Notes: generated from the sequence alone by a model not told the origin. DNA of 64,000 nucleotides from Methanobacteriota archaeon (GCA_963769885.1 CAVYNH010000006.1:256001-320000), one strand, 5' to 3'; positions 9,115-22,103 are shown, numbered from the stretch's first letter. A program made the numbers and translations.

Positions 9115-9756
9115 ACGAAATTCAAACACATCATCCTACTCGCGACCCTCATCAGCCTCACCCTCCTCTACGCCCTCACCGGCATCACCGCTCCCCCCGC
9201 CATCACCCTCGGCGACGCCCACCTCTACGACGGCCAACGCGTCACCGTCACCGGCCGCATCCAAACCTACCACACCCTCACCAACGGCGCCCAAACCATC
9301 ACCATCCACGACCCCACCACCACCGCTACTCTCACCCTCTACCTCCCCACCCCCACCACCATCGCCTACGGCGACACCATCCAAGCCACCGGCACCATCA
9401 CCACCTACCAAGACACCACCGAACTCACCATCGACACCCCCCACGGCCTCACCATCCTGCACCACGACACCAACCCTCTCACCCCCCTCTGGCAACTCGC
9501 CCAAACCCCCCACACCTACCAAGACACCACCATCACCACCACCGGCACTGTCGACACCACCACCCACACCAGCTTCACCCTCACCGACATCACCACCCCA
9601 GCCACCATCCAAGTCACCGGCGCCACCACACAACCCACCAAAGGCCAAACCATCCTCATCCACGCCCGCCTCCTCTACAACCCCGCCACCTTCCGCTACA
9701 CCCTCCAACTCACCAACACCACCATCACCATCCTAGGAGGCAACACCACTGCTTGA
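9115..9756 (+). CDS. Membrane-anchored OB-fold protein, absent from the ORF track; apparent ACG start
   Basis: Open frame (T)KFKHIILLATLISLTLLYAL...DGQRVTVTGRI...YGDTIQATGTITTYQDTTELTI...GGNTTA*. GGAGGT lies 6 nt upstream of ACG, and no ATG/GTG/TTG follows the in-frame stop at 9052. Confidence 0.75.
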   Translation, partial: TKFKHIILLATLISLTLLYALTGITAPPAITLGDAHLYDGQRVTVTGRIQTYHTLTNGAQTITIHDPTTTATLTLYLPTPTTIAYGDTIQATGTITTYQDTTELTIDTPHGLTILHHDTNPLTPLWQLAQTPHTYQDTTITTTGTVDTTTHTSFTLTDITTPATIQVTGATTQPTKGQTILIHARLLYNPATFRYTLQLTNTTITILGGNTTA

Positions 9757-10006
9757 CCTCCTCCTCGTCCTCCTCTTCAGCCTCCTCGGCGTCACCCTCG
9801 GCCTCCTCAGCGGCCTCCTCCCCGGCCTCCACGTCAACAACATCGCCCTCATCCTCCTCACGCTCACCCCCGCCATCGTGACCCTCTGCCACCCACTCAC
9901 GGCCTACGGTCTCTCATCTGATTTCATCCTCATCCTGATCTGCGGGTTAATAGCCTCCCTGAGCCTGGCCCACGCCCTGCACCAGTACATACCCTCCACG
10001 TTCATC
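9749..10006 (+). pseudogene. 5' part of a TctA-family (tripartite tricarboxylate transporter permease, DUF112) gene, interrupted by a transposon
   Basis: GLLSGLLPGLHVNNIAL...QYIPSTFI, then a stop inside the element. CTG start 8 nt after GGAGG. Confidence 0.85.
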
Positions 10007-10132
10007 CAGTAGATGGACAAGTAAAATTCTTTTGGTCTAGGCAGGACTGAAAATCGACTGAACCTATACAATGCTCTGGTTTTTCAAAGAAAAAGTAGGG
10101 GCAATACCACAATAAAACTGGTCGAAATGGAT

Positions 10133-10160
10133 GGGCTTGTAGCTCAGCTAGGGTAGAGCA
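10133..10160 (+). other. tRNA-like 5' fragment (acceptor 5' strand plus D-arm)
   Basis: GGGCTTG-TA-GCTC-AGCTAGGGTA-GAGC-A. No pairing anticodon stem or intact 3' half follows. Confidence 0.5.
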
Positions 10161-10216
10161 ATCTGCTCTACATTGAGAAGAACGTGGTGACCGGCTTGGG
10201 ATCCCGATACAATAAC

Positions 10217-11785
10217 CTATCCCCCGGGGTCAATCAGCATAAACACAGTGCCAAACAGCTTAGAGGTAACCAGATGGTCTTCACCAATCTCTGAATGCAG
10301 ATGCAGCCAAACCAGGAGATCAGCTAAGATCCAGAGATTATAGAGAAGAACTGAGAACAGGAAATAGAACAGACGAATGATATAGTTCTTCGAGGTTGTC
10401 TTCGCTCGGAAGGAATGCTTCTTGACTCTATAGCTTGTCTCGATTCCCCATCGTTTGCTATAGAGGTAGAGAAGGCGTTCCGCAAGCCCAATCTCTTTTT
10501 CATCAAGGTCCATATTTGTTGCAAAGACTCTCTTCACGGGCCTCCTGAGAAGATCCAAATCGTCAACGATCACGAGGTTCATCGGGAGATTGTTCAGAGT
10601 GAACCCTTTTACGACAGCAGGCGATGGCGTTAGGTCCATGACTCGTTTTACGGAGAAATTATGGATTGCTGGCATGAGATAAGTCAGGCGGAATTTCTCA
10701 ACTGTTCTGAGGGATTGGGCGTCGAAGAATCCTCTGTCAAGGTAGACATGGCTGATTTTTACGCGTTGAGTCGCGTAGGTGAATAATCTGGAGAGGATGG
10801 ATTCCTTTGAGTCCAGCATTGAAACAGGGAGGGCCAGGAGGGTGAACCGTTTCCCGGACTCTACGATTGAGATTGTGGCGAATTTGTAGCAGGCAGCGGT
10901 CCCTCGCTCCGGTTGCTTGCCGACAACCATTGGAGCCTTCCGATTTCCATAGAAGAACCATTCGGTGAAATCAACGGCGACATCCACTCGCTTCCGAGGG
11001 CCGAAGAGGTTTGCTTGTCGTGCCATCTCCCAGACAAGCTCAAAGATACAGGTATACATCTCTTGAAGCTCTGCCATCGACGAATACTTCTTCAGATGAT
11101 AGAGCAAAGTCTTCCCCGAAGGCCCCCGGGTTCGTTGTTCCTTGAAGACTCTAGCGCCGTTCTGAGCGAAATCCTGACTGAGACCGAGATGAATCAAGAG
11201 ATTGAGGAGTTCTCCCTTCTCATACTTGATGTTATGCCTCTGATGAAGATTGATGAACGGCGCTATCCTTCGTTTAAAGAGCCGGCAGACGTCCTTGGTC
11301 TTCTCATCCCTGATTAATCTCTGATTACGATCCTGAGTCTCTTTCTGAGGCTCTACAGGCTTCAAAGTCTGATAATCGAAGATGACGTCGAACTTCTCAG
11401 CAATCTCATTAATCTTCGATACTGTGAACCCAATAGCCTCGTTTGCTTCTTGGTCGAGGATATGGTTGATGAAGTAGCCGATTTGTGTTCTGTCTGGTGT
11501 CTCGCTGAATCCTAGTTTGAATTTCTCTGCAGGATTCCTCCTGAGATACTTCGTTAACTTGGTATGGAACTTGATGTGTTTTAGCTTCTGGAAAAGAACG
11601 AGCTTCAGGAGCGATTCGTAGGAGAACTTGATCTTCCGGTATGAGTCTGCTTGAGGAACTGGAAGTTTGAGGTTTTTCAGGAGGTCTGCTATCTTGATGT
11701 TCTTCTGTTGTTTGAATGGTTCGATTGAGTTATATATCTCCTTTTCAATGGTATCAAAGGAGATACCTTGAGTGCTTCGCGGCAT
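10217..11785 (-). CDS. DDE transposase (ISH3-like, IS4 superfamily)
   Basis: VAVDFT (D1), VYLDRGF (D2), YSKRWGIETSYR (Y-x2-R-x3-E signature). Confidence 0.92.
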   Translation of the reverse strand: MPRSTQGISFDTIEKEIYNSIEPFKQQKNIKIADLLKNLKLPVPQADSYRKIKFSYESLLKLVLFQKLKHIKFHTKLTKYLRRNPAEKFKLGFSETPDRTQIGYFINHILDQEANEAIGFTVSKINEIAEKFDVIFDYQTLKPVEPQKETQDRNQRLIRDEKTKDVCRLFKRRIAPFINLHQRHNIKYEKGELLNLLIHLGLSQDFAQNGARVFKEQRTRGPSGKTLLYHLKKYSSMAELQEMYTCIFELVWEMARQANLFGPRKRVDVAVDFTEWFFYGNRKAPMVVGKQPERGTAACYKFATISIVESGKRFTLLALPVSMLDSKESILSRLFTYATQRVKISHVYLDRGFFDAQSLRTVEKFRLTYLMPAIHNFSVKRVMDLTPSPAVVKGFTLNNLPMNLVIVDDLDLLRRPVKRVFATNMDLDEKEIGLAERLLYLYSKRWGIETSYRVKKHSFRAKTTSKNYIIRLFYFLFSVLLYNLWILADLLVWLHLHSEIGEDHLVTSKLFGTVFMLIDPGG

Positions 11786-11845
11786 TCCGGGGGTTTCCTG
11801 CCAAGGGGGCTCGAAACTTCCCTTGGCATTTACCTTATAGTTAAC

Positions 11846-11900
11846 TACTAATAGTATGTGTCTTTTTATTGGTTTTGAGTTAAAGTTAAATACTATTAGT
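11846..11900. promoter_or_regulatory. Paired operator-like palindromes in the divergent transposase / Zn-ribbon promoter
   Basis: ACTAATAGTAT (11847-11857) and ATACTATTAGT (11890-11900) form an 11-bp inverted pair; each is close to TACTA-W-TAGTA. Confidence 0.5.
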
Positions 11901-11916
11901 TAGATAGTTCAATGAA

Positions 11917-12063
11917 ATGGCAAAAGTGACACTACAAGGATACCAATGCGAACGATGCGGACACACCTGGATCCCACGCAACAAAGAAGAAATTCCCAAT
12001 GTATGCCCAAAATGCAAGAGTGCATATTGGGATAAGCCCCGTAAACTCCCCACTAAGAAATAA
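11917..12063 (+). CDS. 48-aa zinc-ribbon protein, below the ORF-track cutoff
   Basis: MAKVTLQGYQCERCGHTWIPRNKEEIPNVCPKCKSAYWDKPRKLPTKK, with two CxxC motifs. Confidence 0.8.
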   Translation: MAKVTLQGYQCERCGHTWIPRNKEEIPNVCPKCKSAYWDKPRKLPTKK

Positions 12064-12122
12064 CTCCTCATCACGGGGATATGACATACGTTTCAATTTA
12101 TTTAGGATTTTTCGACCACTAG

Positions 12123-12218
12123 ATGGGAGTTTCAAACAATGGGAGGGCCATCTGATGGAGGTTCCATTAAATGGGAGTTTCACTGGATGGGACTACCATT
12201 TGGTGGAACTACCAAAAG
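12123..12218 (+). repeat. Six tandem imperfect 16-bp units (RTGGRR-N3-YCA-N4), probable operator array
   Basis: atgggagtttcaaaca / atgggagggccatctg / atggaggttccattaa / atgggagtttcactgg / atgggactaccatttg / gtggaactaccaaaag. Confidence 0.8.
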
Positions 12219-12254
12219 CTTAAATAATTATATTTATGTCTAGTAATAATTAAA

Positions 12255-12638
12255 ATGAAGCAACAGACGATAATAAAAGAACAAATTCCATCAAAGATTA
12301 TATCATTTGAAAAATCAAATGAGCTCTTTATGCTTCTTGGACTTAAAGGAACGCTTCAATTGATATATCATTTAACTGAACAACCACGACAATACAAAGA
12401 TATAGAAGATAACAGTGATCTTCCAAAAACAACTCTCGTACGCCGCATAGAATCCCTACAACGATATAAAATAATTAGCAAAGATCCAGTTACTGTCAAA
12501 GGAAGAAAAACTCACGTGTATAGTTTAACCTCCTTGGGACTTCAATTGATGAATTTTTCAAAACGTTATGAAAGATTATCTTCTATCCCAAGAGAACAGA
12601 AAAAAATCCCCATCGAGAGTGAAATTAAAATCAAATAA
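12255..12638 (+). CDS. Winged-helix transcriptional regulator (HxlR-like)
   Basis: LLGLKGTLQLIYHL...QYKDI...KTTLVRRIESL...YSLTSLG. Confidence 0.8.
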   Translation: MKQQTIIKEQIPSKIISFEKSNELFMLLGLKGTLQLIYHLTEQPRQYKDIEDNSDLPKTTLVRRIESLQRYKIISKDPVTVKGRKTHVYSLTSLGLQLMNFSKRYERLSSIPREQKKIPIESEIKIK

Positions 12639-12646
12639 TCATTCAG

Positions 12647-14146
12647 TCAAATTAAGGATAAAAAGATAGAAGCAGGAACTAAAACAGTATTTTCATATTC
12701 CTGAAAATCATTTTTTGTTATAATTAATCCTCTAAGATTATGGTTCTTTGCAAATTGACTGACATTTCGTAAAGACTGGCTCGGTATATCTGTTCTGAAC
12801 TTGGACTCCACGGGAAGAAGTTGCGGTCCCATATTTGCAATAAAATCAATTTCACTGTTGTGAGGCTCCCAGTAAAAGATTTCATTTCTTGCATCAAATG
12901 GGTCAGATGGCCTTAGATTATAAATTAATCTAATTAGATGGTCAGCAACTAGTGATTCGATAATTATTCCCCTATTGGAATCATCAGCAAGATAATTCAT
13001 GCTTGATTCAAAAGCAGTCTCTGTACCAGTTGAAGAAGTCCAATATCTCAAAGAATGAAAAATAAAAGGATCAAGTATGTAGATTTTTTTACCTTTTTTA
13101 GTGGCTTTTGATGCTTTGTCCGCTACTCGTAAATGATAGAAATATGCTAATGTAAAGCAATCATACATGTTGTCAACATACGATTTTATTGTCGGCATTG
13201 ATGCAACATCTTCTGTTAAACTATTCCAGGATACTTTGCATCCCATTGATTTTATTATTTGCTCTAAGATATTCTTAGCTGTAGTTGTTTCTCTTTTCCA
13301 ATGAGCTAAGTCTGATTGAAAAGCGTGAATGTAATCAGTGTATGTGGCATTTTGAATTGTACTAGTATTCTTATATTCATTAATAGCCTTCGCAATTCCT
13401 CCAGTAAGAAGATAAATGTCTAATAGGACATCTAAATCTTTTTTTAACATAAGAAACCATGTAAGATTATCATTTCGCTTACTTTGAATTAAATCAAGGA
13501 GAACTCGCCGTCTTTTTTCACCATTATGAAGATCTCTTTTAAAAAATTCTGCTGCCAATACTTTATCATAGCATCTAATAAACTCAGCAAATTTCATTGG
13601 GACCAATCTTTTATGTTGAACAATATCTCCCCTTCCTGTTCTGCCAGGAAGCTTCTCAGCTCCAGATTGAATGTCCATTGCATGAGAACCGCATGCAAGT
13701 AAAGTAAGATCCGTCAAAGCACCTTGATCAAATAGGCTCTTTATGGCAAGTTGCCAATTTTTAACAGAAGAGATTTCATCTATAAACAAATATAGATGTT
13801 CGTTTGTTTGTGCTCTTACTTGCTTAATATATGAAAGGATATTTTCTTCTAATTTCTTGGGAGATTTAACTAAATCACAACGAGAGAAAAATATTCTAAA
13901 AGGGTCAATCCCGGACTGTAGCTTTTCTCTGATAAGTATTTTCATCAGGGTAGTTTTTCCTACTTGTCGTGGCCCTCTCAATGTGTACAATACATAGCCA
14001 TCAACATCAAGTTGTATCCTTCTTTTAATAGCAGGCTCCCAGTGTATAGATGACGAGTCAAAGGTTTTCAAATGAATATCTTGGTTTATTGCTTCAGGAT
14101 TAGTCCACCATGGGTTCTCTGAAGCAAGCTCAAATATGCTTTTCAC
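12647..14146 (-). CDS. AAA_14 ATPase with C-terminal DUF4143 (PD-(D/E)xK-like) domain
   Basis: ENPWW, GPRQVGKTT, LFIDEI, LLTGGI, KIYILDP, EIDFI...PVESK. Confidence 0.88.
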   Translation of the reverse strand: MKSIFELASENPWWTNPEAINQDIHLKTFDSSSIHWEPAIKRRIQLDVDGYVLYTLRGPRQVGKTTLMKILIREKLQSGIDPFRIFFSRCDLVKSPKKLEENILSYIKQVRAQTNEHLYLFIDEISSVKNWQLAIKSLFDQGALTDLTLLACGSHAMDIQSGAEKLPGRTGRGDIVQHKRLVPMKFAEFIRCYDKVLAAEFFKRDLHNGEKRRRVLLDLIQSKRNDNLTWFLMLKKDLDVLLDIYLLTGGIAKAINEYKNTSTIQNATYTDYIHAFQSDLAHWKRETTTAKNILEQIIKSMGCKVSWNSLTEDVASMPTIKSYVDNMYDCFTLAYFYHLRVADKASKATKKGKKIYILDPFIFHSLRYWTSSTGTETAFESSMNYLADDSNRGIIIESLVADHLIRLIYNLRPSDPFDARNEIFYWEPHNSEIDFIANMGPQLLPVESKFRTDIPSQSLRNVSQFAKNHNLRGLIITKNDFQEYENTVLVPASIFLSLI

Positions 14147-14387
14147 AAGAAATGAAGGTTATTCTTAGTATTTAAACTTGTTCATAAAGTATTTTGAAGC
14201 TAGTATTTAAAGAAGTGAAAATGATTATATTTTTTTATTTTTCTATTTAAACTTTTTTTAAATAGATTTTGAAAGATAAGCATTTTGGTCTTTTGTTGCT
14301 CCGTAAATTATTTTAAAATTCTCGAAAACTCTAAATCAAGACTCGAAACTTCTTTATCTATTATTTCGATAACCTTACCTTGAGAGG

Positions 14388-16494
14388 ATGAAGCCTAAAA
14401 AAATAATGAGACCTAAAGACAGGTTCATTCACCACGAACGATACGAGGTCGAATTATACAATGATTTAATAAAGAAATTTAATCAGCGGGGTTTTGAGTT
14501 CAAACAAAAACCTGGATTTTCAGACTTAGTTGATGAATTGAATAGGATATTAGTTGAAGTTAAACTTGGTGCAGACACCGCTGAAGATGGGGCATCACAA
14601 ATACTCTATGAGGTTGCTAAAAGCAACCTAAGAAATTTCTTATACCTTGGATTGGCAGACAGTGAGATGTTTCATCTATTCAAGAGTCCAGAGTACAGGT
14701 CATATTTTGACTTTCGCTTTATCCCTTGACCCAGAGTTATCAAAATCTCCAAGTAGTTTCAGTGGAAAAAAGATTGCCGAGGCATTAGTGATTTTTGGTG
14801 AACCCATTTGGCAAGGTTTTTGGAGAAACACAGAGGATGATCTGTCTAGGATTCTAAGTAGCGACACTCACATTCCGTTCATAGCGGAAAATCTCTTTGA
14901 TTTCCATAGGATTTTTGGATTGTACGGCATCAGAACCTCTGATGTTATTGCTGCATTTACTGATGAGGTTGTTAGCCATATTGAAGTAACAAAGGACCGC
15001 ATTGTTATTTCAAGAGAACGAGGAAATCCAGTTGTGATACGCTATTCTGGAGAAATGAAGCGAACCCACAAATGGATTTTGCAAAGGATGAGAATCCCTG
15101 ATATTAAAGCTATTGAAAAACTTCGGCAGACAAGCGATCGCTTACAGAGTCATAATAAACGAGTCGAGCGAGGTGCATTTTACACCGAGGAGTTGCTGTC
15201 TATTAAAATGAGCCTGAAGGCTCTAGAGCTTGTTCACCCTGACTTTATTATAGAGCCTTATGCAGGTGCTGGTTCACTATTGGCTGCAGTTGTCAATGAT
15301 GTCCCTAATGGCTGGGTAAACGACTATGATAAAGACGCGGCAGCTATGCTTTCGGCAGATTATGGTAGTTTAGGATACAAAGTAACATGTGAAGACATGA
15401 TTTTTTACCCAGTTCAAAAAGCTGTAAAAATCATTGGTGATGCTGAACGACCATTGTTCATTACCAATCCTCCTTTCAGTTATATTCGAGGTTTCACGTA
15501 TGGAACAGAAAAACTTGAAAAATTGAATAAGAAGTATGGGAAGAGGAATCAGATACAACTGGCTATTGGTAAAATAATGGAGATAATAGAAAATCTCGAC
15601 AGAGGTTATCTCGCTTTTTTTTCTCAGATGGGTGTGTTTTGTGAAAAAGAACAATATGTATTATTTTTGAATCAGCTTCTCAATAATTTTACATTCATTG
15701 ATGGATATATCTGGTCTGGGAAACATTTTAATGATGTACGGGAAGAGATTCCTGTTTCCTTCACAATTTGGAAATATGGGGGATCAACTGATTTAGAGAA
15801 AATAAAATTCGATTGTGAAGATTTTGGTTTAATAGGATTCAAACGATACCCTTTATTAAGAGATGGATGGAGATATAGGACACAAAAGATAATGAAAGGT
15901 GAAATAGCGGTTCAGGCACAAGGAGATTTCGATACTCGTTCTCCAAAAATATTTCATAATCAAGTAATCAAAGGTGGCTCAGAAGTAATACCTGAGAATG
16001 TAAAAAAACCTTTACATCTTAAAGGAATATCTGATGAATTGGCGTACGCTCTCTGGATTACAGTTGTAGGCCAAAAATCATTAGGAAGATCCAGCAAAGA
16101 AGGATACCCGTTTTATGATGGAGCAGCATATGTTCATCTACCTAATTTTACATTAGATAAGACAAAAGAAATTCTAGCATATGGTCTCTTATATGCCTTT
16201 ATTGGGCCAGATTATACTCAAGGGAAAATAGGTTTTATTGGCCCAAGAAAAGTAATGAGATTTGGAAAGTCTACACGTTTGAATAACGGGGCAAAATATC
16301 TGTTTGATACTTATGGCTATTTACCTGTCGGTGAGCAGACAATCTCTGAAATCCTCGATGAAATTAAAGATGGCCATAAAGGCCAACACTGGAGGATAGA
16401 TATAGTCAAAGAAATCTCTAATAGATTGGAAGCAATCGGTTATTGGGATAATATTCCCTTACCGTTGAAACATAATAATTCAACTCTTTTTTGA
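14388..16494 (+). pseudogene. Fused restriction endonuclease / amino-methyltransferase (Type IIG-like), frameshifted near 14695
   Basis: ORF 14388 has SDLVD...VEVK (PD-ExK-like). ORF 14647 has GAFYT, IEPYAGAGSL (motif I) and ITNPPF (motif IV). The two frames overlap at 14647-14729. Confidence 0.7.
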
Positions 16495-16611
16495 ATTAGA
16501 CAATGAAGGTCAATTCATTTACAGGATTGATTTTATTAAAACTCATTTACTTCATATGAAAAAGCCCTATTTTCATTGCTTTTATATATCAGTAGATTCG
16601 TTTTTTCGATT

Positions 16612-17343
16612 ATGACTCCTATAAACAAGAAACTCAGCGAAGAAGACTGCCAGCGAATTATCAAGCTCATTAGTGAGGGTCATCGAATTAAGGATCTAGC
16701 AAAGAAGTTCAGTGTTGACCCTAGCACCATACAAAAGCGATGTAAAGGCAAGTATCTGATGAGGATGGTCCCGTTAGAAATCAAAAACAAAGTCTTCCAG
16801 GCCCTCAAAGAAGGATATACTAAGGCAGAAGCAGCCAATATGTATGGCTTACAGGTCGGCACTGTCTATTCTATGACGAAGGGGATCCCTGGTGGTCGCA
16901 GGGAAGGAAACCACATCCTGAGACCGAATGGAATCAAGCTTCTCAATAGATTACTTGTTGATGGTTGTCTTATCACAGATTATTATATTGAGGTTGCTCG
17001 GAACCTTCAGAAGCTGTTCCCCTGCATCTTAACCGCTCGATACAGGGCAAAGACCTTCTTCTATCTTAAAGGAAGAGAAGAAGAGACCATTGAGGCATTC
17101 TTCAAGCAGATGCCGGATCATGTGATCCATTACGCAGCTTTAGAAGAAATCTCTTTCCTGCTTGGCGTCAAGATTAATAGGGAGAACCAAGGACGGCTTA
17201 TAGAGAAGTATAAGCAGAAGCATCGAGATTTTGTGATTTCCAAGCGCCTTCAACAACGATGCATCGAGGATTTTTTTTCTGATGAAGAGTATCCGTTTGT
17301 CTGGGAAGAACCGAAATTTCATATTCCTCCAAAGCAAAGCTGA
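16612..17343 (+). CDS. Protein with two N-terminal HTH motifs
   Basis: GHRIKDLAKKFSVDPSTIQKR and GYTKAEAANMYGLQVGTVYS. Confidence 0.7.
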   Translation: MTPINKKLSEEDCQRIIKLISEGHRIKDLAKKFSVDPSTIQKRCKGKYLMRMVPLEIKNKVFQALKEGYTKAEAANMYGLQVGTVYSMTKGIPGGRREGNHILRPNGIKLLNRLLVDGCLITDYYIEVARNLQKLFPCILTARYRAKTFFYLKGREEETIEAFFKQMPDHVIHYAALEEISFLLGVKINRENQGRLIEKYKQKHRDFVISKRLQQRCIEDFFSDEEYPFVWEEPKFHIPPKQS

Positions 17344-17494
17344 TTAAATAGGGAGTGATAAAAAATAGGCCAAGAGTTTAAGAAATATTTAAATAAAGAT
17401 ACTTGATTGTGTTACCACGAGGTGGTGCCGGTAAGATAGTAAAATAGTTAGGACAAATTTATTATACAAGTTTTATATATATTTTCGTGAAAAG

Positions 17495-17914
17495 ATGACA
17501 GAAGCCATCGAAAGAAAGACAGACTTTAATGATTTTGCTATTGCTGTATCCAAAGCCTTTGAAGATGTAAGTACAATTTTATCTAATAAAAATAAAAGTA
17601 TAGAATTATGCGAAGCAAAAAAAATATTAGTATTACTTGAAGATGATTTATCGAAGGTGATTTTACTTTCGTCATTAGAGACGAGTACTTTTGAACAACT
17701 ATTAGAATCCACTCGTATAGATCCTTTAACCTTAGATGAATGTCTGGATAATATGCATCATTTTGGGTTGTTAGAAAAATATTTCGTTAAAGGAAGTCCC
17801 TACCAACCAAGATATAAAACAACGAAATTTGCCAAAATTGTATTGAGAGATCTATTTGATGTGAAAAAAGAGAAAGCAGCAGAAGAATTAAAAAAACTGC
17901 AGAAGAAGCAATAG
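17495..17914 (+). CDS. Hypothetical winged-helix-like protein
   Basis: STFEQLLESTRIDPLTLDECLDNMHHFGLL...YKTTKFAK wing pattern. Confidence 0.6.
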   Translation: MTEAIERKTDFNDFAIAVSKAFEDVSTILSNKNKSIELCEAKKILVLLEDDLSKVILLSSLETSTFEQLLESTRIDPLTLDECLDNMHHFGLLEKYFVKGSPYQPRYKTTKFAKIVLRDLFDVKKEKAAEELKKLQKKQ

Positions 17915-17947
17915 TACGACTTTCTCATTTGGATCAAAAGGATTATT

Positions 17948-18487
17948 ATGGCAATAAAAAGTTTAGATATTCTGCTATTGGGTCCTTATCATCCAACACC
18001 TGAAGAATTATCTAAAATGTATGAAAAAGGAGAGCCAGCAATAGATGAAAAATTGAAAAAAAGAATACCCCTTCATTATATGGAAAAATTAAATCATTTA
18101 AAGGAAACATTAAAAGCCGACGGGCATGAAGCCTATTTTGTAACAGATAAAAGAACTGATATTAGAAATACATGGGAAAGAACCAATAATCTAATAAATG
18201 ATTCAGATTTGATTATTCATTTGCTTTCCAATACTGGCGGTTCTATGTTTGAACATGGTCTTATTACAGCTTTTAATCTACATTATAAAACCTATACTTT
18301 TATATCAGAGGATGAATTTAAACATGTTTCTGGTCTAATAAAAACAGGTACGAGATTACAACCAGAAGTAAATATGTATAGATACGAAAATGATGAAGAA
18401 TTATTTGATCTTGTAATTAGAAAGTTAGATAGTTTTCAAAGAGCAGATTATATAAGAGAAATTAAAAAGAAATTGGAAGTATCATAA
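17948..18487 (+). CDS. Nucleoside 2-deoxyribosyltransferase / TIR-like Rossmannoid protein
   Basis: ILLLGPY...LKADGHEAYFV...INDSDLIIHLLSNTGGSMFEHG (G-x3-E-x-G). Confidence 0.55.
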   Translation: MAIKSLDILLLGPYHPTPEELSKMYEKGEPAIDEKLKKRIPLHYMEKLNHLKETLKADGHEAYFVTDKRTDIRNTWERTNNLINDSDLIIHLLSNTGGSMFEHGLITAFNLHYKTYTFISEDEFKHVSGLIKTGTRLQPEVNMYRYENDEELFDLVIRKLDSFQRADYIREIKKKLEVS

Positions 18488-18530
18488 AATAGGAGTAAAA
18501 CTTTTTTTCATACTTTAACAATAAGCAACA

Positions 18531-18740
18531 TTAAAGTTTTCCTCCTGCTCTGAAGATCGCATCCATCAGAAGAGATTCTTCTTTTCTCAATCCATCCATG
18601 AATTTCTCATACCGTTCTATCTCTTCCTTACTTGATCTAGGTTTGGCCTTATTGAATAGGTCTTCCATTAGCTGAATGAGAGCTTGGCAGGCAGCTAAAT
18701 CTTTCTTCAGTTGTTCAACATCTGCTATTCGATAAACCAT
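18531..18740 (-). CDS. Small helical hypothetical protein
   Basis: 69-aa ORF with coiled-coil-like composition. Confidence 0.5.
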   Translation of the reverse strand: MVYRIADVEQLKKDLAACQALIQLMEDLFNKAKPRSSKEEIERYEKFMDGLRKEESLLMDAIFRAGGKL

Positions 18741-18912
18741 ATCTGGAGTTAAATCGGATAAAGAGATTTAGTTTTTCTTATTGGTTACTTCCCTAGAAAG
18801 GTTCTCTACTCTTAAATTTTCTTAACATTCGTTGCAATAAAATTCATATCAAAATATTTATATGAATGTAAAGAATAGCAATTCCAGACTAATCACAGGG
18901 GAAGAGGAAAAA

Positions 18913-20829
18913 ATGCGAAATAATATGTTGAGGAAAGGATTGGTTATAGGAATCATATTGTTATTTGCAGGAACAAGTGTTCTTCCTACTAGAATGGTAA
19001 AGGCAACCAGAAATATAATTTATGTGCCAGATGATTATACAACGATTCAAGCTGCAGTTGATAATGCGAGTGCTAATGATACCATTGTTGTTCGAGATGG
19101 AACATATACTGAGAATATCAATGTAAACAAGCGTTTGACGATTCAATCAGAGAATGGTTCTTCAAATTGTATTGTCCAAACTATTTCTCCTGGTGGATAT
19201 ATCTTTGATTTAGGCGCTGATTCAGTGGTTATAAAGGGATTTACTCTTGAGGGAGCCTGGGACTGGGGATCGGGAGTTTATCTAGAAAATGTTAACTATT
19301 GCTCTATTCTGGATAATATCTGTATTAACAATTATAATGGTATTTTATTGCAATGTTTTGCAAATTATAGCACATTAAAAAATAATAATTGTTCTGGAGG
19401 TTGCCATGGTATTCATTTGCAACAAAGTGCTAATAATATCGTGATAAATAACTCCTGCTATAATAACAGGTTTAATTGGGGGGATGGCATCATGGTAGAA
19501 GGTTATTATTCCTACAACAACCTTCTTAAATATAACAGTGTCTCTGGAAATCTCCATGGTATCCATTTAGCACATGCGGAGTATGAAGCAAGCAATAATT
19601 GGATATACCTGAATAACTTCGTGGACAATGATGAAAACTCTTGGATTGAACAAACTCACATTACTAATACTTGGAACTCTACTGAAGAAATAATTTATTC
19701 CTATAATGGTAGTGTTTATACCAACTATATGGGTAATTATTGGGATGATTACACAGGTAATGATTCTGATGGAGATGGTATAGGTGATGCCTCCTATAGC
19801 ATATTTGGAGTTAATGATTATTATCCCTTAATGGAACCTTTCGAGAATTATATAAATGAAGTCTCCAAAGGCATATGGATTAATGGAGGACAATATGGGC
19901 ATTCTAATAATCCAACAACAGAACAATACATTGTAACAGCAAATCATTTCGGAGGAATAAATTCTATTATTGACCTTGTCGTCATTCTTGCCCGAGCGGA
20001 TGGTACGTATGCCGAATACCCAAGTACTGTGGCAGATCGGAATGAGAGCAAGGATTTAGTTGAGCCAATGCTTGAGGCATTGGATGAATCTGGGTATCAT
20101 TGTATTCTCAGTATCCAACCCCTTACTACTAATATCACCGATCTCATAAATGAGATTCTTTCAAGATATTCCCATCATCCTTGTATTCTTGGAGTGGGAC
20201 TTGATGCTGAATGGAAGGGACCGGTACAACCTGGATCAGTGTCTGATGCTGAGGCGGAATCTTACATCGATACTATCCAACATTTCCAGGGCTCCTACCA
20301 ACTTTTCTTAGTCCACTATGATATTAGTATGCTGCCCGATGATAGACCTAGAATGACTGTCCTATATGATGGGAAGGATGATGTTCCTACAATACTCGCA
20401 AATTATCGTGTTTGGGGTCAGAAATGGTCTTCGGTGGGAATCTATGTATTCGATAAGAGTTCACCGATTGCCGATGATGTAATCATGGAAACCGCTCCAA
20501 ATACGGGTTACATCATACATGAAGAATACACCGTCCTTGGTCTTGGCATAGAAATCAAAGGCGGGCTAGGGGTGAATGTGAATATTAAAAATAATGGGGA
20601 TGTTAAAGCCGCTAATATCACATGGGAGATCTATATCGAGGGCGGTATTCTTCAACGAATAAATAAAACAGTGAATGGTACTATCGATATTCCTGTAGGG
20701 GAATCAGGCACGGTAAGGACGGGATTATTCTTTGGATTTGGCCCTATCGCTATCACTGTAAAAGCAGCTGATGAAGAAAAGATCGCAGAGGGAACACAGT
20801 TCATCATCTTCTCGATGGTAAAGAAATAG
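18913..20829 (+). CDS. Secreted NosD/CASH beta-helix protein with a central putative TIM-barrel-like domain and conserved CTD
   Basis: Signal peptide LRKGLVIGIILLFAGTS; YVPDDYTTIQAAVDNA; GNYWDDYTGNDSDGDGIGD; CTD with GFGPIAITVKA. Confidence 0.8.
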   Translation: MRNNMLRKGLVIGIILLFAGTSVLPTRMVKATRNIIYVPDDYTTIQAAVDNASANDTIVVRDGTYTENINVNKRLTIQSENGSSNCIVQTISPGGYIFDLGADSVVIKGFTLEGAWDWGSGVYLENVNYCSILDNICINNYNGILLQCFANYSTLKNNNCSGGCHGIHLQQSANNIVINNSCYNNRFNWGDGIMVEGYYSYNNLLKYNSVSGNLHGIHLAHAEYEASNNWIYLNNFVDNDENSWIEQTHITNTWNSTEEIIYSYNGSVYTNYMGNYWDDYTGNDSDGDGIGDASYSIFGVNDYYPLMEPFENYINEVSKGIWINGGQYGHSNNPTTEQYIVTANHFGGINSIIDLVVILARADGTYAEYPSTVADRNESKDLVEPMLEALDESGYHCILSIQPLTTNITDLINEILSRYSHHPCILGVGLDAEWKGPVQPGSVSDAEAESYIDTIQHFQGSYQLFLVHYDISMLPDDRPRMTVLYDGKDDVPTILANYRVWGQKWSSVGIYVFDKSSPIADDVIMETAPNTGYIIHEEYTVLGLGIEIKGGLGVNVNIKNNGDVKAANITWEIYIEGGILQRINKTVNGTIDIPVGESGTVRTGLFFGFGPIAITVKAADEEKIAEGTQFIIFSMVKK

Positions 20830-21020
20830 GGAAACCTATCTCCCCCTATCTTTCTTTTTTTCTTTTTATATATGCTTTTAACCCTTAGCTATTGGATAAA
20901 CTATTTCCTTCTCATTTTTCCAATAAAATAGGTTGAATTTCCCGATAGTGTTTTTCAATGTTTTTCTCCATATGAATCCTCGTTCCTTCTCATTTTTTTA
21001 CCTTAGCAAGTACTGTCATC

Positions 21021-22103
21021 GGCGCACCAAACGAGGAAACCGCGCTCTCCATCCTGCCAGCTCACAAGCTTCTCCTCAAAGGACGCGGCTACCATGCCCT
21101 CAGCCTCGCGGTCCTCGGCGGCATCGGCGCCATGCTCCTCTGCCTCGGCCTCCTCCTCCCGATGCGGTTCATCATCGGGCCACCCCTCAACCTCTACACC
21201 GCCCTCAGAAGCATCATGGTCTGGGTCCTCCTCGCCGTCGTCGCCATCATGATTGGCACCGAAAAATGCCGCATCGCCGAACTCGGCACGAAAGGAAAAC
21301 TCCCCGCCGCGGCCGGCATGCTCTTCGCCCTCCTCGTCTTCCTCCTCTCCGGCATCTTCGGCCTCATCATCTTCAACATGACCCCGCAGTCCCCCATCGG
21401 ACTACCCGCCCCCGTCCTCTTCCCCGCCTTCGTCGGACTCTTCGGCCTACCGACGCTGCTCGCATCGCTGGCGACCAGACCCGCCATCCCTCCTCAAAAC
21501 CTCGAGCCGCTCACCCTCAACCGCATCGATCGGAAAGCCTCAGGCCTCTCCGTCGCAACCGGCAGCCTCGCCGGCATCTTCGTCTCCCTGATTCCCGGGC
21601 TGACGACCGCGACCGGCACCGTCATTGCCATGAACGCCCGCCCCCGCGCCAGCCCTGAACAGACCATCATCACCCTCTCCGCGGTCAGCGCCTCCTCATC
21701 GTTCTTCGTCATCATCGTGCTCTTCCTCACCCAACGGGCGCGTAGCGGCGTCACAATTACGATTTCGGCGCTACAGCCCGCCGAGCTATGGTCTTCCCTC
21801 CTCCCGCCGCAGTTCCTCGTTTACCTCTTGATTTTTCTTATCGTCAGCGGCTCTATTTCCTATTTCACCGCTTTGTCCTTGGGTCGCTGGTTCGCCAAGA
21901 ACTTCTCTCGCATCCCCTATGTTCCCCTCGTCGTCTTCACCATTGCGTTCATCGTCTCGCTGGTGATCCTTTTCACCGGTCTGCTCGGCATCATGATCTT
22001 GGGGGTGGCGGCATGTCTTGGGTTCCTCCCGTTGACGTGGGGCGTCCGCCGCAGTCAATGTATGGGAGTGCTCCTCATCCCGATTATTCTGTACTTTCTC
22101 TAA
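21021..22103 (+). pseudogene. 3' part of the interrupted TctA-family permease
   Basis: GAPNEETALSILPAHKLLLKGRG is in frame with ORF 21132..22103 (LFPAFVGLFG, SLIPGL, RARSG, VRRSQCMGVL). Confidence 0.85.

Follow-up and report, generated by a model that had tools for sequence, protein, structure and literature searches.

An 11-kb element interrupting tctA in a sediment archaeon is very probably a unit transposon of a site-specific, cargo-carrying family related to ISH3

We analysed a 64,000-nucleotide stretch of DNA (the window) from a genome deposited as Methanobacteriota archaeon (GCA_963769885.1, CAVYNH010000006.1:256001-320000). Positions 10007-21015 of the window very probably constitute a unit (non-composite) DNA transposon, which carries one ISH3-related DDE transposase and belongs to a family of site-specific elements with exchangeable cargo. 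The element interrupts a tctA gene. Its host is an uncultured sediment Thermoplasmatota archaeon with a genome of 2.09 Mb in 7 contigs, and the element lies within a contig of 785 kb. As far as sequence comparison can reach, the evidence consists of its borders and duplications, the empty sites and lack of an inner end, and, among its relatives, the exchange of cargo, the recurrence of targets and the association of target with transposase clade.

Results

Borders and ends of the element

The element is 11,009 bp long and is flanked by a perfect 5-bp duplication, with identical copies of TCATC at 10002-10006 and 21016-21020. A first-pass annotation made from the window sequence had placed the borders at exactly these positions (10002-21020, duplications included). 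The left terminus reads CAGTAGATGG... and the right terminus ...GCAAGTACTG. Both ends start with CAGTA and, by our count, 14 of 20 positions are equal between the two 20-nt ends, in line with the imperfect terminal inverted repeats (TIRs) of 20 bp described in that annotation. The transposase-proximal TIR (CAGTAGATGGACAAGTAAAATTC, 10007-10029, plus strand) has a tip homologous to the sequence CAGTAG(T/A)T(C/G)C... of related loci, and equals the consensus tip of its own subfamily (CAGTAGATGCTAAAGTAGA) at 15 of 19 positions (our count). The far TIR, followed by a subterminal A-rich box (read inward CAGTACTTGCTAAGGTAAAAAAATGAGAAGG..., 20971-21015, minus strand), is recognised by a profile built from ten far ends of related elements. 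Its first 19 nt are the same as in the far end of the closest relative (locus L062, from another sample), and 16 of these 19 positions agree with the family consensus. The end at 21015 fits the far-end type of the family better than does the proximal end of the same element.

The element thus has the make-up that defines a unit transposon: it contains one transposase and one pair of inverted repeats, a single duplication encloses all of it, and no insertion sequence (IS) copies flank it. No second copy of the transposase gene or of either end was found in the 2.09-Mb host genome, and the earlier statement that a single transposase near the left end is unaccompanied by another IS copy holds for the entire genome.

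The guanine-plus-cytosine (GC) fraction inside the element is 0.30-0.47 (0.44-0.47 over the transposase gene, 0.30-0.40 over the remainder), compared with 0.54-0.62 in the adjoining segments. Such a sharp GC step at each border could also arise if a low-GC contig had been misjoined into a high-GC contig of a metagenome-assembled genome (MAG), and the contigs of many relatives do break inside elements. However, both junctions are located inside the 785-kb contig, they interrupt a single gene at one and the same codon and are accompanied by a 5-bp duplication, and the independent assembly L062 has the same architecture in another GC-rich host. We regard an assembly chimera as scarcely credible.

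The lower GC of the cargo compared with the transposase part would be in keeping with a standard IS, ~1.9 kb long and extending from 10007 to ~11850, that is situated at the edge of an unrelated low-GC island, in which case the end at 21015 would be fortuitous. A loosely end-like sequence, TTTACCTTATAGTTAACTACTA, is indeed present upstream of the transposase start, at ~11829-11850. The far-end profile does not see this sequence even at E 10, whereas 21015 scores 5.9e-10 and is the sole match in the element. The profile likewise gives no end near any transposase start in the related elements, none of the related loci has an end less than 2 kb from the transposase start, and 11829-11850 was rejected as a real inner end for lack of a profile match there in the window or in any related element. 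Moreover, four genes beyond TTTACCTTATAGTTAACTACTA, encoding a Zn-ribbon protein, a winged helix-turn-helix (wHTH) regulator, a helix-turn-helix (HTH) protein and a 69-aa protein, are conserved in relatives from other hosts, and the duplication brackets the full 11 kb, removal of which restores tctA exactly. An IS beside an island is therefore very unlikely. The first-pass annotation had named an IS end just upstream of the transposase as the observation that would speak against a unit transposon; searched for with the far-end profile, such an end was not found.

The interrupted tctA gene and its empty sites

The N-terminal part of tctA (9749-10006, plus strand, ~86 codons) has an open frame that stops exactly at 10006, and its last 5 bp form the left copy of the duplication. 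The C-terminal part starts with the right copy at 21016-21020 and is open up to position 22103 (plus strand, 360 codons). It matches the Pfam family PF01970 (TctA) with 3.8e-31 over profile positions 65-422 of 423. We searched 40 related genomes with the C-terminal part and then sought the N-terminal part beside each match, which gave 30 loci. In 24 of these the two halves abut without a gap, with the last residue of the N-terminal part beside the first residue of the C-terminal part. Removal of the element together with one TCATC therefore restores an ordinary tctA of ~446 codons, the rejoined 446-aa TctA that had been anticipated from the window. In a genome of the same genus (G001), tctA is uninterrupted and encodes a TctA that is 75-79% identical; the empty site reads ...ACGTTCGTC GGCGCACC.... 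In the window, the joined empty site would run from ...ACGTTCATC directly into GGCGCACC....

The transposase

The transposase gene (10217-11785, minus strand) is the only transposase open reading frame (ORF) of the element and encodes a DDE protein of 522 aa (Pfam DDE_Tnp_1, 1.4e-7). Its best NCBIfam match is transpos_ISH3 (NF033541; E 1.1e-41), with 142.9 bits against a curated cut-off of 225 bits. Residues 192-486 align with profile positions 3-295 of 298, so that about 190 N-terminal residues are extra. The motif Y-(2)-R-(3)-E-(3)-R (YSKRWGIETSYR) is found at residues 442-453, and D272, D350/D355 and E449 are invariant across 24 transposase homologues.

Elements of the ISH3 family, an 'emerging family' related to IS4, have been described as 1225-1500 bp long, with CRGT termini, direct repeats of 4-5 bp and a Y-(2)-R-(3)-E-(3)-(R) motif, and are confined to archaea (De Palmenaer et al., 2008, PMC2266710). 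The elements studied here resemble them in their archaeal hosts, a DDE transposase that matches ISH3 best, the Y-2-R-3-E-3-R motif, CRGT-type ends and 5-bp repeats. They differ in being 4.2-19 kb long with 3-15 extra genes, in a transposase of ~520 aa with an N-terminal addition of ~190 aa and a score under the NCBIfam cut-off, and in having asymmetric ends with distinct subterminal regions, a second conserved gene and a strict choice of target. The assignment therefore holds at the level of 'related to' ISH3. The ISH3/IS4 membership proposed in the first-pass annotation agrees with the ends, repeats, motif and best NCBIfam match, the last with a score below the cut-off, but not with the size.

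A hairpin with a 9-bp stem, read from the sequence, is located directly upstream of the transposase start codon (11799-11828, minus strand). Equivalent hairpins occupy the matching position in three related loci (L004, L005 and L006), and the structure may control translation or transcription of the transposase gene.

Related elements

Relatives of the transposase (50-61% identical) are encoded in 82 of 197 species genomes of this Thermoplasmatota class, mostly in 1-3 copies and in up to 7; among 301 genomes sampled across the phylum they were present in this class only. A metagenome collection contributed 194 stretches that encode a relative. In all loci with enough flanking sequence (>90), the proximal tip is located ~200 nt beyond the transposase stop, and its conserved part reads inward CAGTAGTTCCGAA(A/G)GTA. 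The far end differs in type: it reads CAGTA(C/G)TTCCGAAGGTAAAAAAATG..., and an A-rich box is repeated ~100 nt further in.

We could delimit 17 elements as complete. They are 4.2-19 kb long, and in each the pentamer is identical on both sides. They comprise the element in the window, those in G013 (19,012 bp), L048 (6,443 bp), L061 (9,409 bp), L045 (7,030 bp) and L062 (11,095 bp), an element designated G012B in genome G012 (6,358 bp), and elements on ten metagenome contigs (4,199-11,634 bp). Metagenome loci were retrieved with 10-kb flanks, and elements larger than ~11.8 kb are not visible there. None of the >90 loci is an IS-sized member, and no complete element is shorter than 4.2 kb. The proposal of a class of archaeal unit transposons in the IS4 superfamily is borne out by this set: homologous transposases, once collected, were found to have distant CAGTA ends, 5-bp duplications and variable cargo.

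L062 is located in a GC-rich host, is also inserted in tctA, and has the duplication TTGTC. Compared with the element in the window, its transposase is 79% identical, its Zn-ribbon protein 92%, its wHTH regulator 52%, its HTH protein 78% and the 69-aa ORF 79%. Between these shared genes L062 carries a SacI-like nuclease and a D12-class methyltransferase (PADLOC MTase_II, 6e-52), a viperin-like (pVip-like) radical-SAM gene (4e-16), UDG and DCD, in the place that is occupied in the window by an ATPase and a Type IIG-like gene; the slot near the far end differs as well. Other relatives carry an N6/N4 methyltransferase, a weak NotI-like match, a Cas4-like DUF2779 nuclease, an RNase T exonuclease and an HD protein (G013), MBL-fold and CDC48-N proteins (L048), or a PAS histidine kinase set with a CheY-like response-regulator ORF, the latter recognised by eye from the translation (L061). 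The cargo varies between relatives, and is often but not exclusively defence-like. The suggestion that such transposons mobilise defence islands agrees with the restriction-modification and viperin-like genes of relatives, but is too narrow, as others carry signalling, MBL/CDC48-N or NosD genes.

The far-end profile recognises one outermost far end per complete element and one extra inner copy, in G013. This second far-type end (L039, G013:C76, ~18029-18072) is located 1.3 kb inside the outer one and is of the subtype of the window element and L062. It has no adjoining duplication and probably remains from an earlier resident or from end-switching.

Genome G012 holds two elements in tandem with the same TTTTG between them, and the junctions are located at 1015-1030 and 7378-7390 of L040 (G012:C14). 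Arrays are also present in L096, L112 and L120. Their order is the far end of one element, the 5-bp duplication and the proximal tip of the next, which shows that the same site has been hit repeatedly. G012B, the inner 6.4-kb element of the G012 tandem, has family ends and encodes an IS66-type DDE protein instead of an ISH3-type transposase. This 933-aa protein (L040, 4322-7123) is an unusual fusion of an RNase_H_2 domain with an IS66-type DDE domain (Pfam 2.7e-22 and 1.8e-26).

The composition of G012B might suggest an integrative element that is moved by another recombinase or a helper, with the DDE transposase as a passenger. An internal tRNA-like fragment, typical of integrase-type elements, is also present in the window: 42 nt at 10128-10169 (plus strand), inside the proximal subterminal region, resemble the 5' half of tRNA-Lys and are 90% identical to the host tRNA-Lys(CUU) gene at G000:C6:516641. 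ARAGORN called no tRNA in the window, so that the piece is a fragment only, and it was absent from every related element examined. Against this alternative, Pfam and NCBIfam revealed no tyrosine or serine recombinase among the ORFs of the element, the ends together with a host-derived 5-bp duplication are an ISH3 signature, and the transposase is found ~200 nt from a conserved tip in >90 loci. The pentamer is host sequence that varies by site and not an element-borne core, and the tandem position of G012B next to a transposase-bearing copy means that mobilisation in trans accounts for it. We give very little weight to movement by another enzyme. The idea that the proximal subterminal region of the window copy had been uniquely replaced was rejected as well, since this region is variable in all relatives.

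Some further observations concern the relatives. Many of the MAG contigs of L042-L060 break off on the cargo side, only a few kb from the transposase. A 1.6-kb contig binned as 'Candidatus Peribacteria bacterium' (L008, CAZYBL010000212.1) has a family proximal end with a TATA-like box at the usual offset, adjoining what looks by eye like a CTP-synthase (pyrG-like) gene; the contig is probably archaeal and misbinned.

Target choice

At least 11 species genomes and 16 metagenome contigs carry an insertion at one and the same nucleotide of tctA. The genomes are that of the window, G013, G012, G009, G028, probably G006, and those behind L004, L006, L052, L059 and L054, the last with the element inverted. 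The tctA pentamers vary (TCATC, TCCTC, TTTTG, TTATT, TTGTC, TCCTT and others) and are host-derived sequence. The stretch into which the elements insert is highly conserved at the nucleotide level (CC..C.ACNT / 5 bp / GGNGCNCCNGA) as well as in the protein (...P-S/T-T-F-I/V/L | G-A-P...). The seven transposases from tctA insertions group as a single clade (SH-aLRT 97) in a tree of 24.

Recurrence at tctA could also reflect shared ancestry rather than targeting, if the element were an ancient, vertically inherited and immobile island. The transposases of the tctA copies have diverged (~57-79% identity) to the same order as the host TctA flanks, and a clade of tctA-inserted transposases would be expected from descent alone. 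However, tctA is intact and in frame in 24 of the 30 relatives, including one of the same genus and a congener of G028, and excision by a DDE enzyme would rarely restore the frame. The pentamers are equal within each complete copy and unlike between genomes, and at the tctA site there are one inverted copy and one tandem pair. In the window and in L062, a markedly AT-rich element lies in a GC-rich host, and both halves of tctA are still open. Repeated independent insertion is favoured over one ancient event by the identical pentamers within genomes and the intact relatives, by the copy in inverted orientation and the two in tandem, and by the difference in GC; the pentamers, identical within each genome but different between genomes, and the low GC of the element both point to separate and fairly recent insertions. 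We consider an ancient island unlikely, though less so than the other alternatives to a unit transposon.

Other clades of the family (junctions in L042-L061 and L065-L144) appear to select promoters. In 34 of 55 metagenome junctions outside tctA, the best TATA-like octamer outward of the proximal tip starts at offset 15, and in 47 of 55 the offset is 13-17; these junctions are not independent, as they represent ~20-25 distinct promoter sites by eye, and the offsets are raw counts. Among the genome loci, a TATA-like octamer is present at the same offset in 11 of 12 target classes. Where flanks were read, host genes (rpl44e, purH and a Zn-finger gene among them) have their start codon ~35-52 nt out and point away from the element. 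Judging from these flanks, the sister clades lie in a uniform orientation upstream of the TATA box, ~10 bp away from it, and leave the core promoter in place. The window copy and its clade do not follow this pattern, since they are inserted within the tctA coding sequence. Taken over all the loci compared, insertion is site-specific, with the transposase clade linked to the type of target.

Transposase identity is 66.9% within the tctA clade and 64.3% between clades, so that the determinant of target choice could not be located by comparing transposases.

The HTH protein

The HTH protein encoded in the window (HTH255, 255 aa; 16576-17343, plus strand; Pfam HTH_7/HTH_23/HTH_28) has a homologue in all 17 complete elements. 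Translation probably begins at the ATG near 16612. The HTH gene is the last one, 12-152 bp from the far tip, in the 12 elements of the promoter type, while the five tctA-type elements have a distinct subtype, encoded 1.7-4.1 kb from the far tip. Identity is 49-78% within the tctA type (for HTH255, 78% to L062 and 51-58% to G013 and G012B) and 22-26% to the other elements. At least 160 metagenomic homologues of HTH255 were found.

A model of HTH255 (pLDDT 78) has a paired-like double HTH followed by a C-terminal alpha/beta domain. No PDB structure matched the model at E<=1e-3, and only a weak resemblance to tandem winged-helix proteins and the Pax5 paired domain was seen. We infer from the universal presence of the protein, and from the correlation of its subtype with the target, that it is a candidate adaptor that would bind the target or the ends.

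Backbone genes and cargo of the element in the window

Divergent from the transposase gene lies the gene for the Zn-ribbon microprotein (11917-12063, plus strand; 48 aa, CxxC...CxxC; weak matches to NCBIfam zinc-ribbon domains), which adjoins the transposase gene in 10 of the 17 complete elements. It is followed by a probable operator array of six (C/T)CA-N5-TGG units with an exact 16-bp period (12116-12211, plus strand), upstream of the wHTH gene. A direct pattern count gave six matches exactly 16 nt apart, compared with 37 matches on the plus strand of the entire 64-kb window; Tandem Repeats Finder missed the array. In the corresponding place, L062 has a 16-bp-period repeat of different sequence. 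The wHTH regulator (12255-12638, plus strand; 127 aa) is HxlR-like (Pfam HxlR, 1.3e-6) and is encoded by a backbone gene of the subfamily, with 35-40% identity in L004, L006, L052 and L059. The 69-aa ORF (18531-18740, minus strand), with a weak sub-threshold match to Pfam SesA, is also part of the backbone.

The first cargo slot contains two genes. An ATPase of 499 aa (12647-14146, minus strand) combines AAA_14 and DUF4143 domains (Pfam 2e-23 and 2e-12), corresponds to the PADLOC candidate system PDC-S01 (5e-30) and is not present in L062. Next to it is a Type IIG/IIL-like nuclease-methyltransferase gene (14388-16494, plus strand), in which a +1 frameshift between 14647 and 14729 has produced two overlapping ORFs (14388-14729 and 14647-16494). 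Its homologues are undivided proteins of 685-749 aa, and the 113-aa ORF is 73% identical to residues 1-103 of one of them (P0122). The motifs AGAGS and NPPF and a D...EVK pattern are visible, and the PADLOC MTase_II match is weak (0.006). The modelled fold of P0122, which is intact and 69% identical, has BpuSI as its best PDB match (3s1s, E 1.8e-10), with MmeI and DrdV also listed. The fold predicted for the homologue supports a Type IIG-like identity for the gene, which is broken in this copy.

Two small cargo ORFs of 139 aa and 179 aa (17495-18487, plus strand), neither of which is found in L062, had no Pfam, NCBIfam or PADLOC matches. For the 179-aa ORF there is a weak lead to nucleoside-deoxyribosyltransferase-like proteins (Atlas to PF05014 clusters, score 0.84). 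PDB sequence searches yielded no useful match for the transposase, the 615-aa ORF or the 179-aa ORF. The second cargo slot holds a NosD/parallel beta-helix protein of 655 aa (18862-20829, plus strand; Pfam NosD 3.9e-23, TIGR03804 repeats), which the first-pass annotation described as secreted, and in L062 the slot holds other genes. The cargo listed in the first-pass annotation is largely confirmed (Zn-ribbon, wHTH with its array, AAA/DUF4143 and NosD proteins); the Type IIG-like gene is upheld by fold but is frameshifted, and the deoxyribosyltransferase stays a weak lead. The PDC-S01 candidate ATPase and the frameshifted Type IIG-like gene are the only defence-like genes in this copy.

Two other low-GC patches of the window, at 34-37 kb and 60-63 kb (0.32-0.45), were considered as elements of the same kind and rejected. 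They have no family ends and their genes look ordinary, with an M14 carboxypeptidase in the first patch, and FAD oxidoreductases and a FIST protein in the second, among the ORFs scanned.

Discussion

We propose that the transposase encoded at one end acts on two dissimilar CAGTA ends, and that the whole 11 kb would be moved, with a 5-bp staggered cut made in the target. The chemistry would be of the cut-and-paste type. The conserved backbone consists of the transposase, the Zn-ribbon protein, the wHTH regulator with its 16-bp array, the multi-HTH protein, the 69-aa ORF and the two ends, and cargo genes are exchanged in two slots. The family selects its targets precisely and with one orientation: the clade of the window copy inserts at a single tctA nucleotide, and sister clades have the start of the TATA box 15 nt outward of the proximal tip. 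The target may be chosen by the HTH protein or by the N-terminal extension of the transposase. The element in the window may have arrived recently from an AT-rich donor, and may still be able to move. The first-pass annotation had missed both the site-specific insertion and the second core gene, which encodes the HTH protein.

Several observations weigh against this interpretation. The transposase scores below the NCBIfam cut-off for ISH3, and is hardly more alike within the tctA clade than between clades. The loci behind the TATA offset are not independent. The role proposed for the HTH protein derives from its universal presence and the correlation of subtype with target. The element is single-copy in its own genome; with 4 of 19 positions of the proximal tip differing from the subfamily consensus and a frameshift in one cargo gene, this copy may be decaying. 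No vehicle between hosts was found: a search of viral contigs with a single protein or alignment query gave no relatives, which is not evidence against viral carriage. Finally, the case for mobility is comparative throughout, resting on empty versus occupied orthologous sites.

The nearest described behaviour to that of the promoter-type clades, by analogy, is that of the TnGBS integrative conjugative elements and ISLre2. TnGBS, ISLre2 and ISKra4 use Mutator-like DDE transposases, and TnGBS and ISLre2 insert 15-17 bp upstream of the sigma-A -35 box, with an orientation set by dissimilar inverted repeats (Guerillot et al., 2014, PMC3942029). The likeness lies in large DDE-driven elements with unlike ends, of which the sister clades are oriented and located at a fixed distance from the TATA box. 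In contrast to the present family, TnGBS elements belong to another transposase superfamily, have bacterial hosts and carry conjugation genes, none of which were seen here; moreover, the archaeal target is a promoter of the B-recognition element (BRE)/TATA type, and the window copy targets a coding site.

Tn7-family transposons have been reported in archaea (Thesier et al., 2025, bioRxiv 10.1101/2025.07.27.667033), and their cargo has been surveyed (PMC8649781). Like Tn7, the elements described here carry cargo that is frequently defence-related, have differing left and right ends and insert site-specifically into conserved housekeeping loci, and a dedicated DNA-binding protein may direct them to their targets. 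Unlike Tn7, they have a single ISH3-type DDE enzyme, and Pfam and NCBIfam revealed no TnsA, TnsB, TnsC or TniQ in the element; the only trace is a sub-threshold match to a TnsD HTH in the G012 homologue. The AAA_14 ATPase of the window copy is cargo and is not found in L062. Tn7 lands downstream of the gene that it recognises, whereas tctA is interrupted. Bacterial unit transposons, or 'transporter IS', such as the Tn3 family (PMC7157771) also combine one transposase, TIRs and a duplication with variable passengers, but Tn3-type elements have other transposase families and mechanisms, and no resolvase is present here.

DNA transposons with passenger genes have been stated to be undetected in archaea (Krupovic et al., 2019, PMC6563490), and we found no publication on archaeal cargo transposons of the ISH3 type, or on targeting of tctA or of a set distance from TATA boxes in archaea. 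New here are the site-specific insertion, the universal HTH gene, the asymmetric ends and the tandem arrays. For annotators, CAGTA ends with a 5-bp repeat provide a rule for delimiting islands in these MAGs, and elements of the family account for many contig breaks at these loci.

For archaeal mobile elements, the family represents a second route to cargo transposons, unrelated to Tn7, in which an IS family thought to be transposase-only yields carriers of 4-19 kb. For a DDE enzyme that has no known helpers, the choice of target is unusually precise, and recognition of an archaeal promoter or coding sequence by the transposase or an HTH partner becomes testable. We speculate, with somewhat less than even confidence, that a class-wide, ISH3-derived family with a two-gene core (the DDE transposase at one end and the multi-HTH protein usually at the other) reads landmarks of the host genome at single-base precision, that most lineages insert in one orientation at a set distance upstream of BRE/TATA promoters, and that one lineage swapped its HTH subtype and was retargeted to tctA. 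The HTH protein would then be a swappable adaptor, analogous to TniQ/TnsD, and the elements may be a main vehicle by which defence and accessory genes are exchanged among these sediment archaea.

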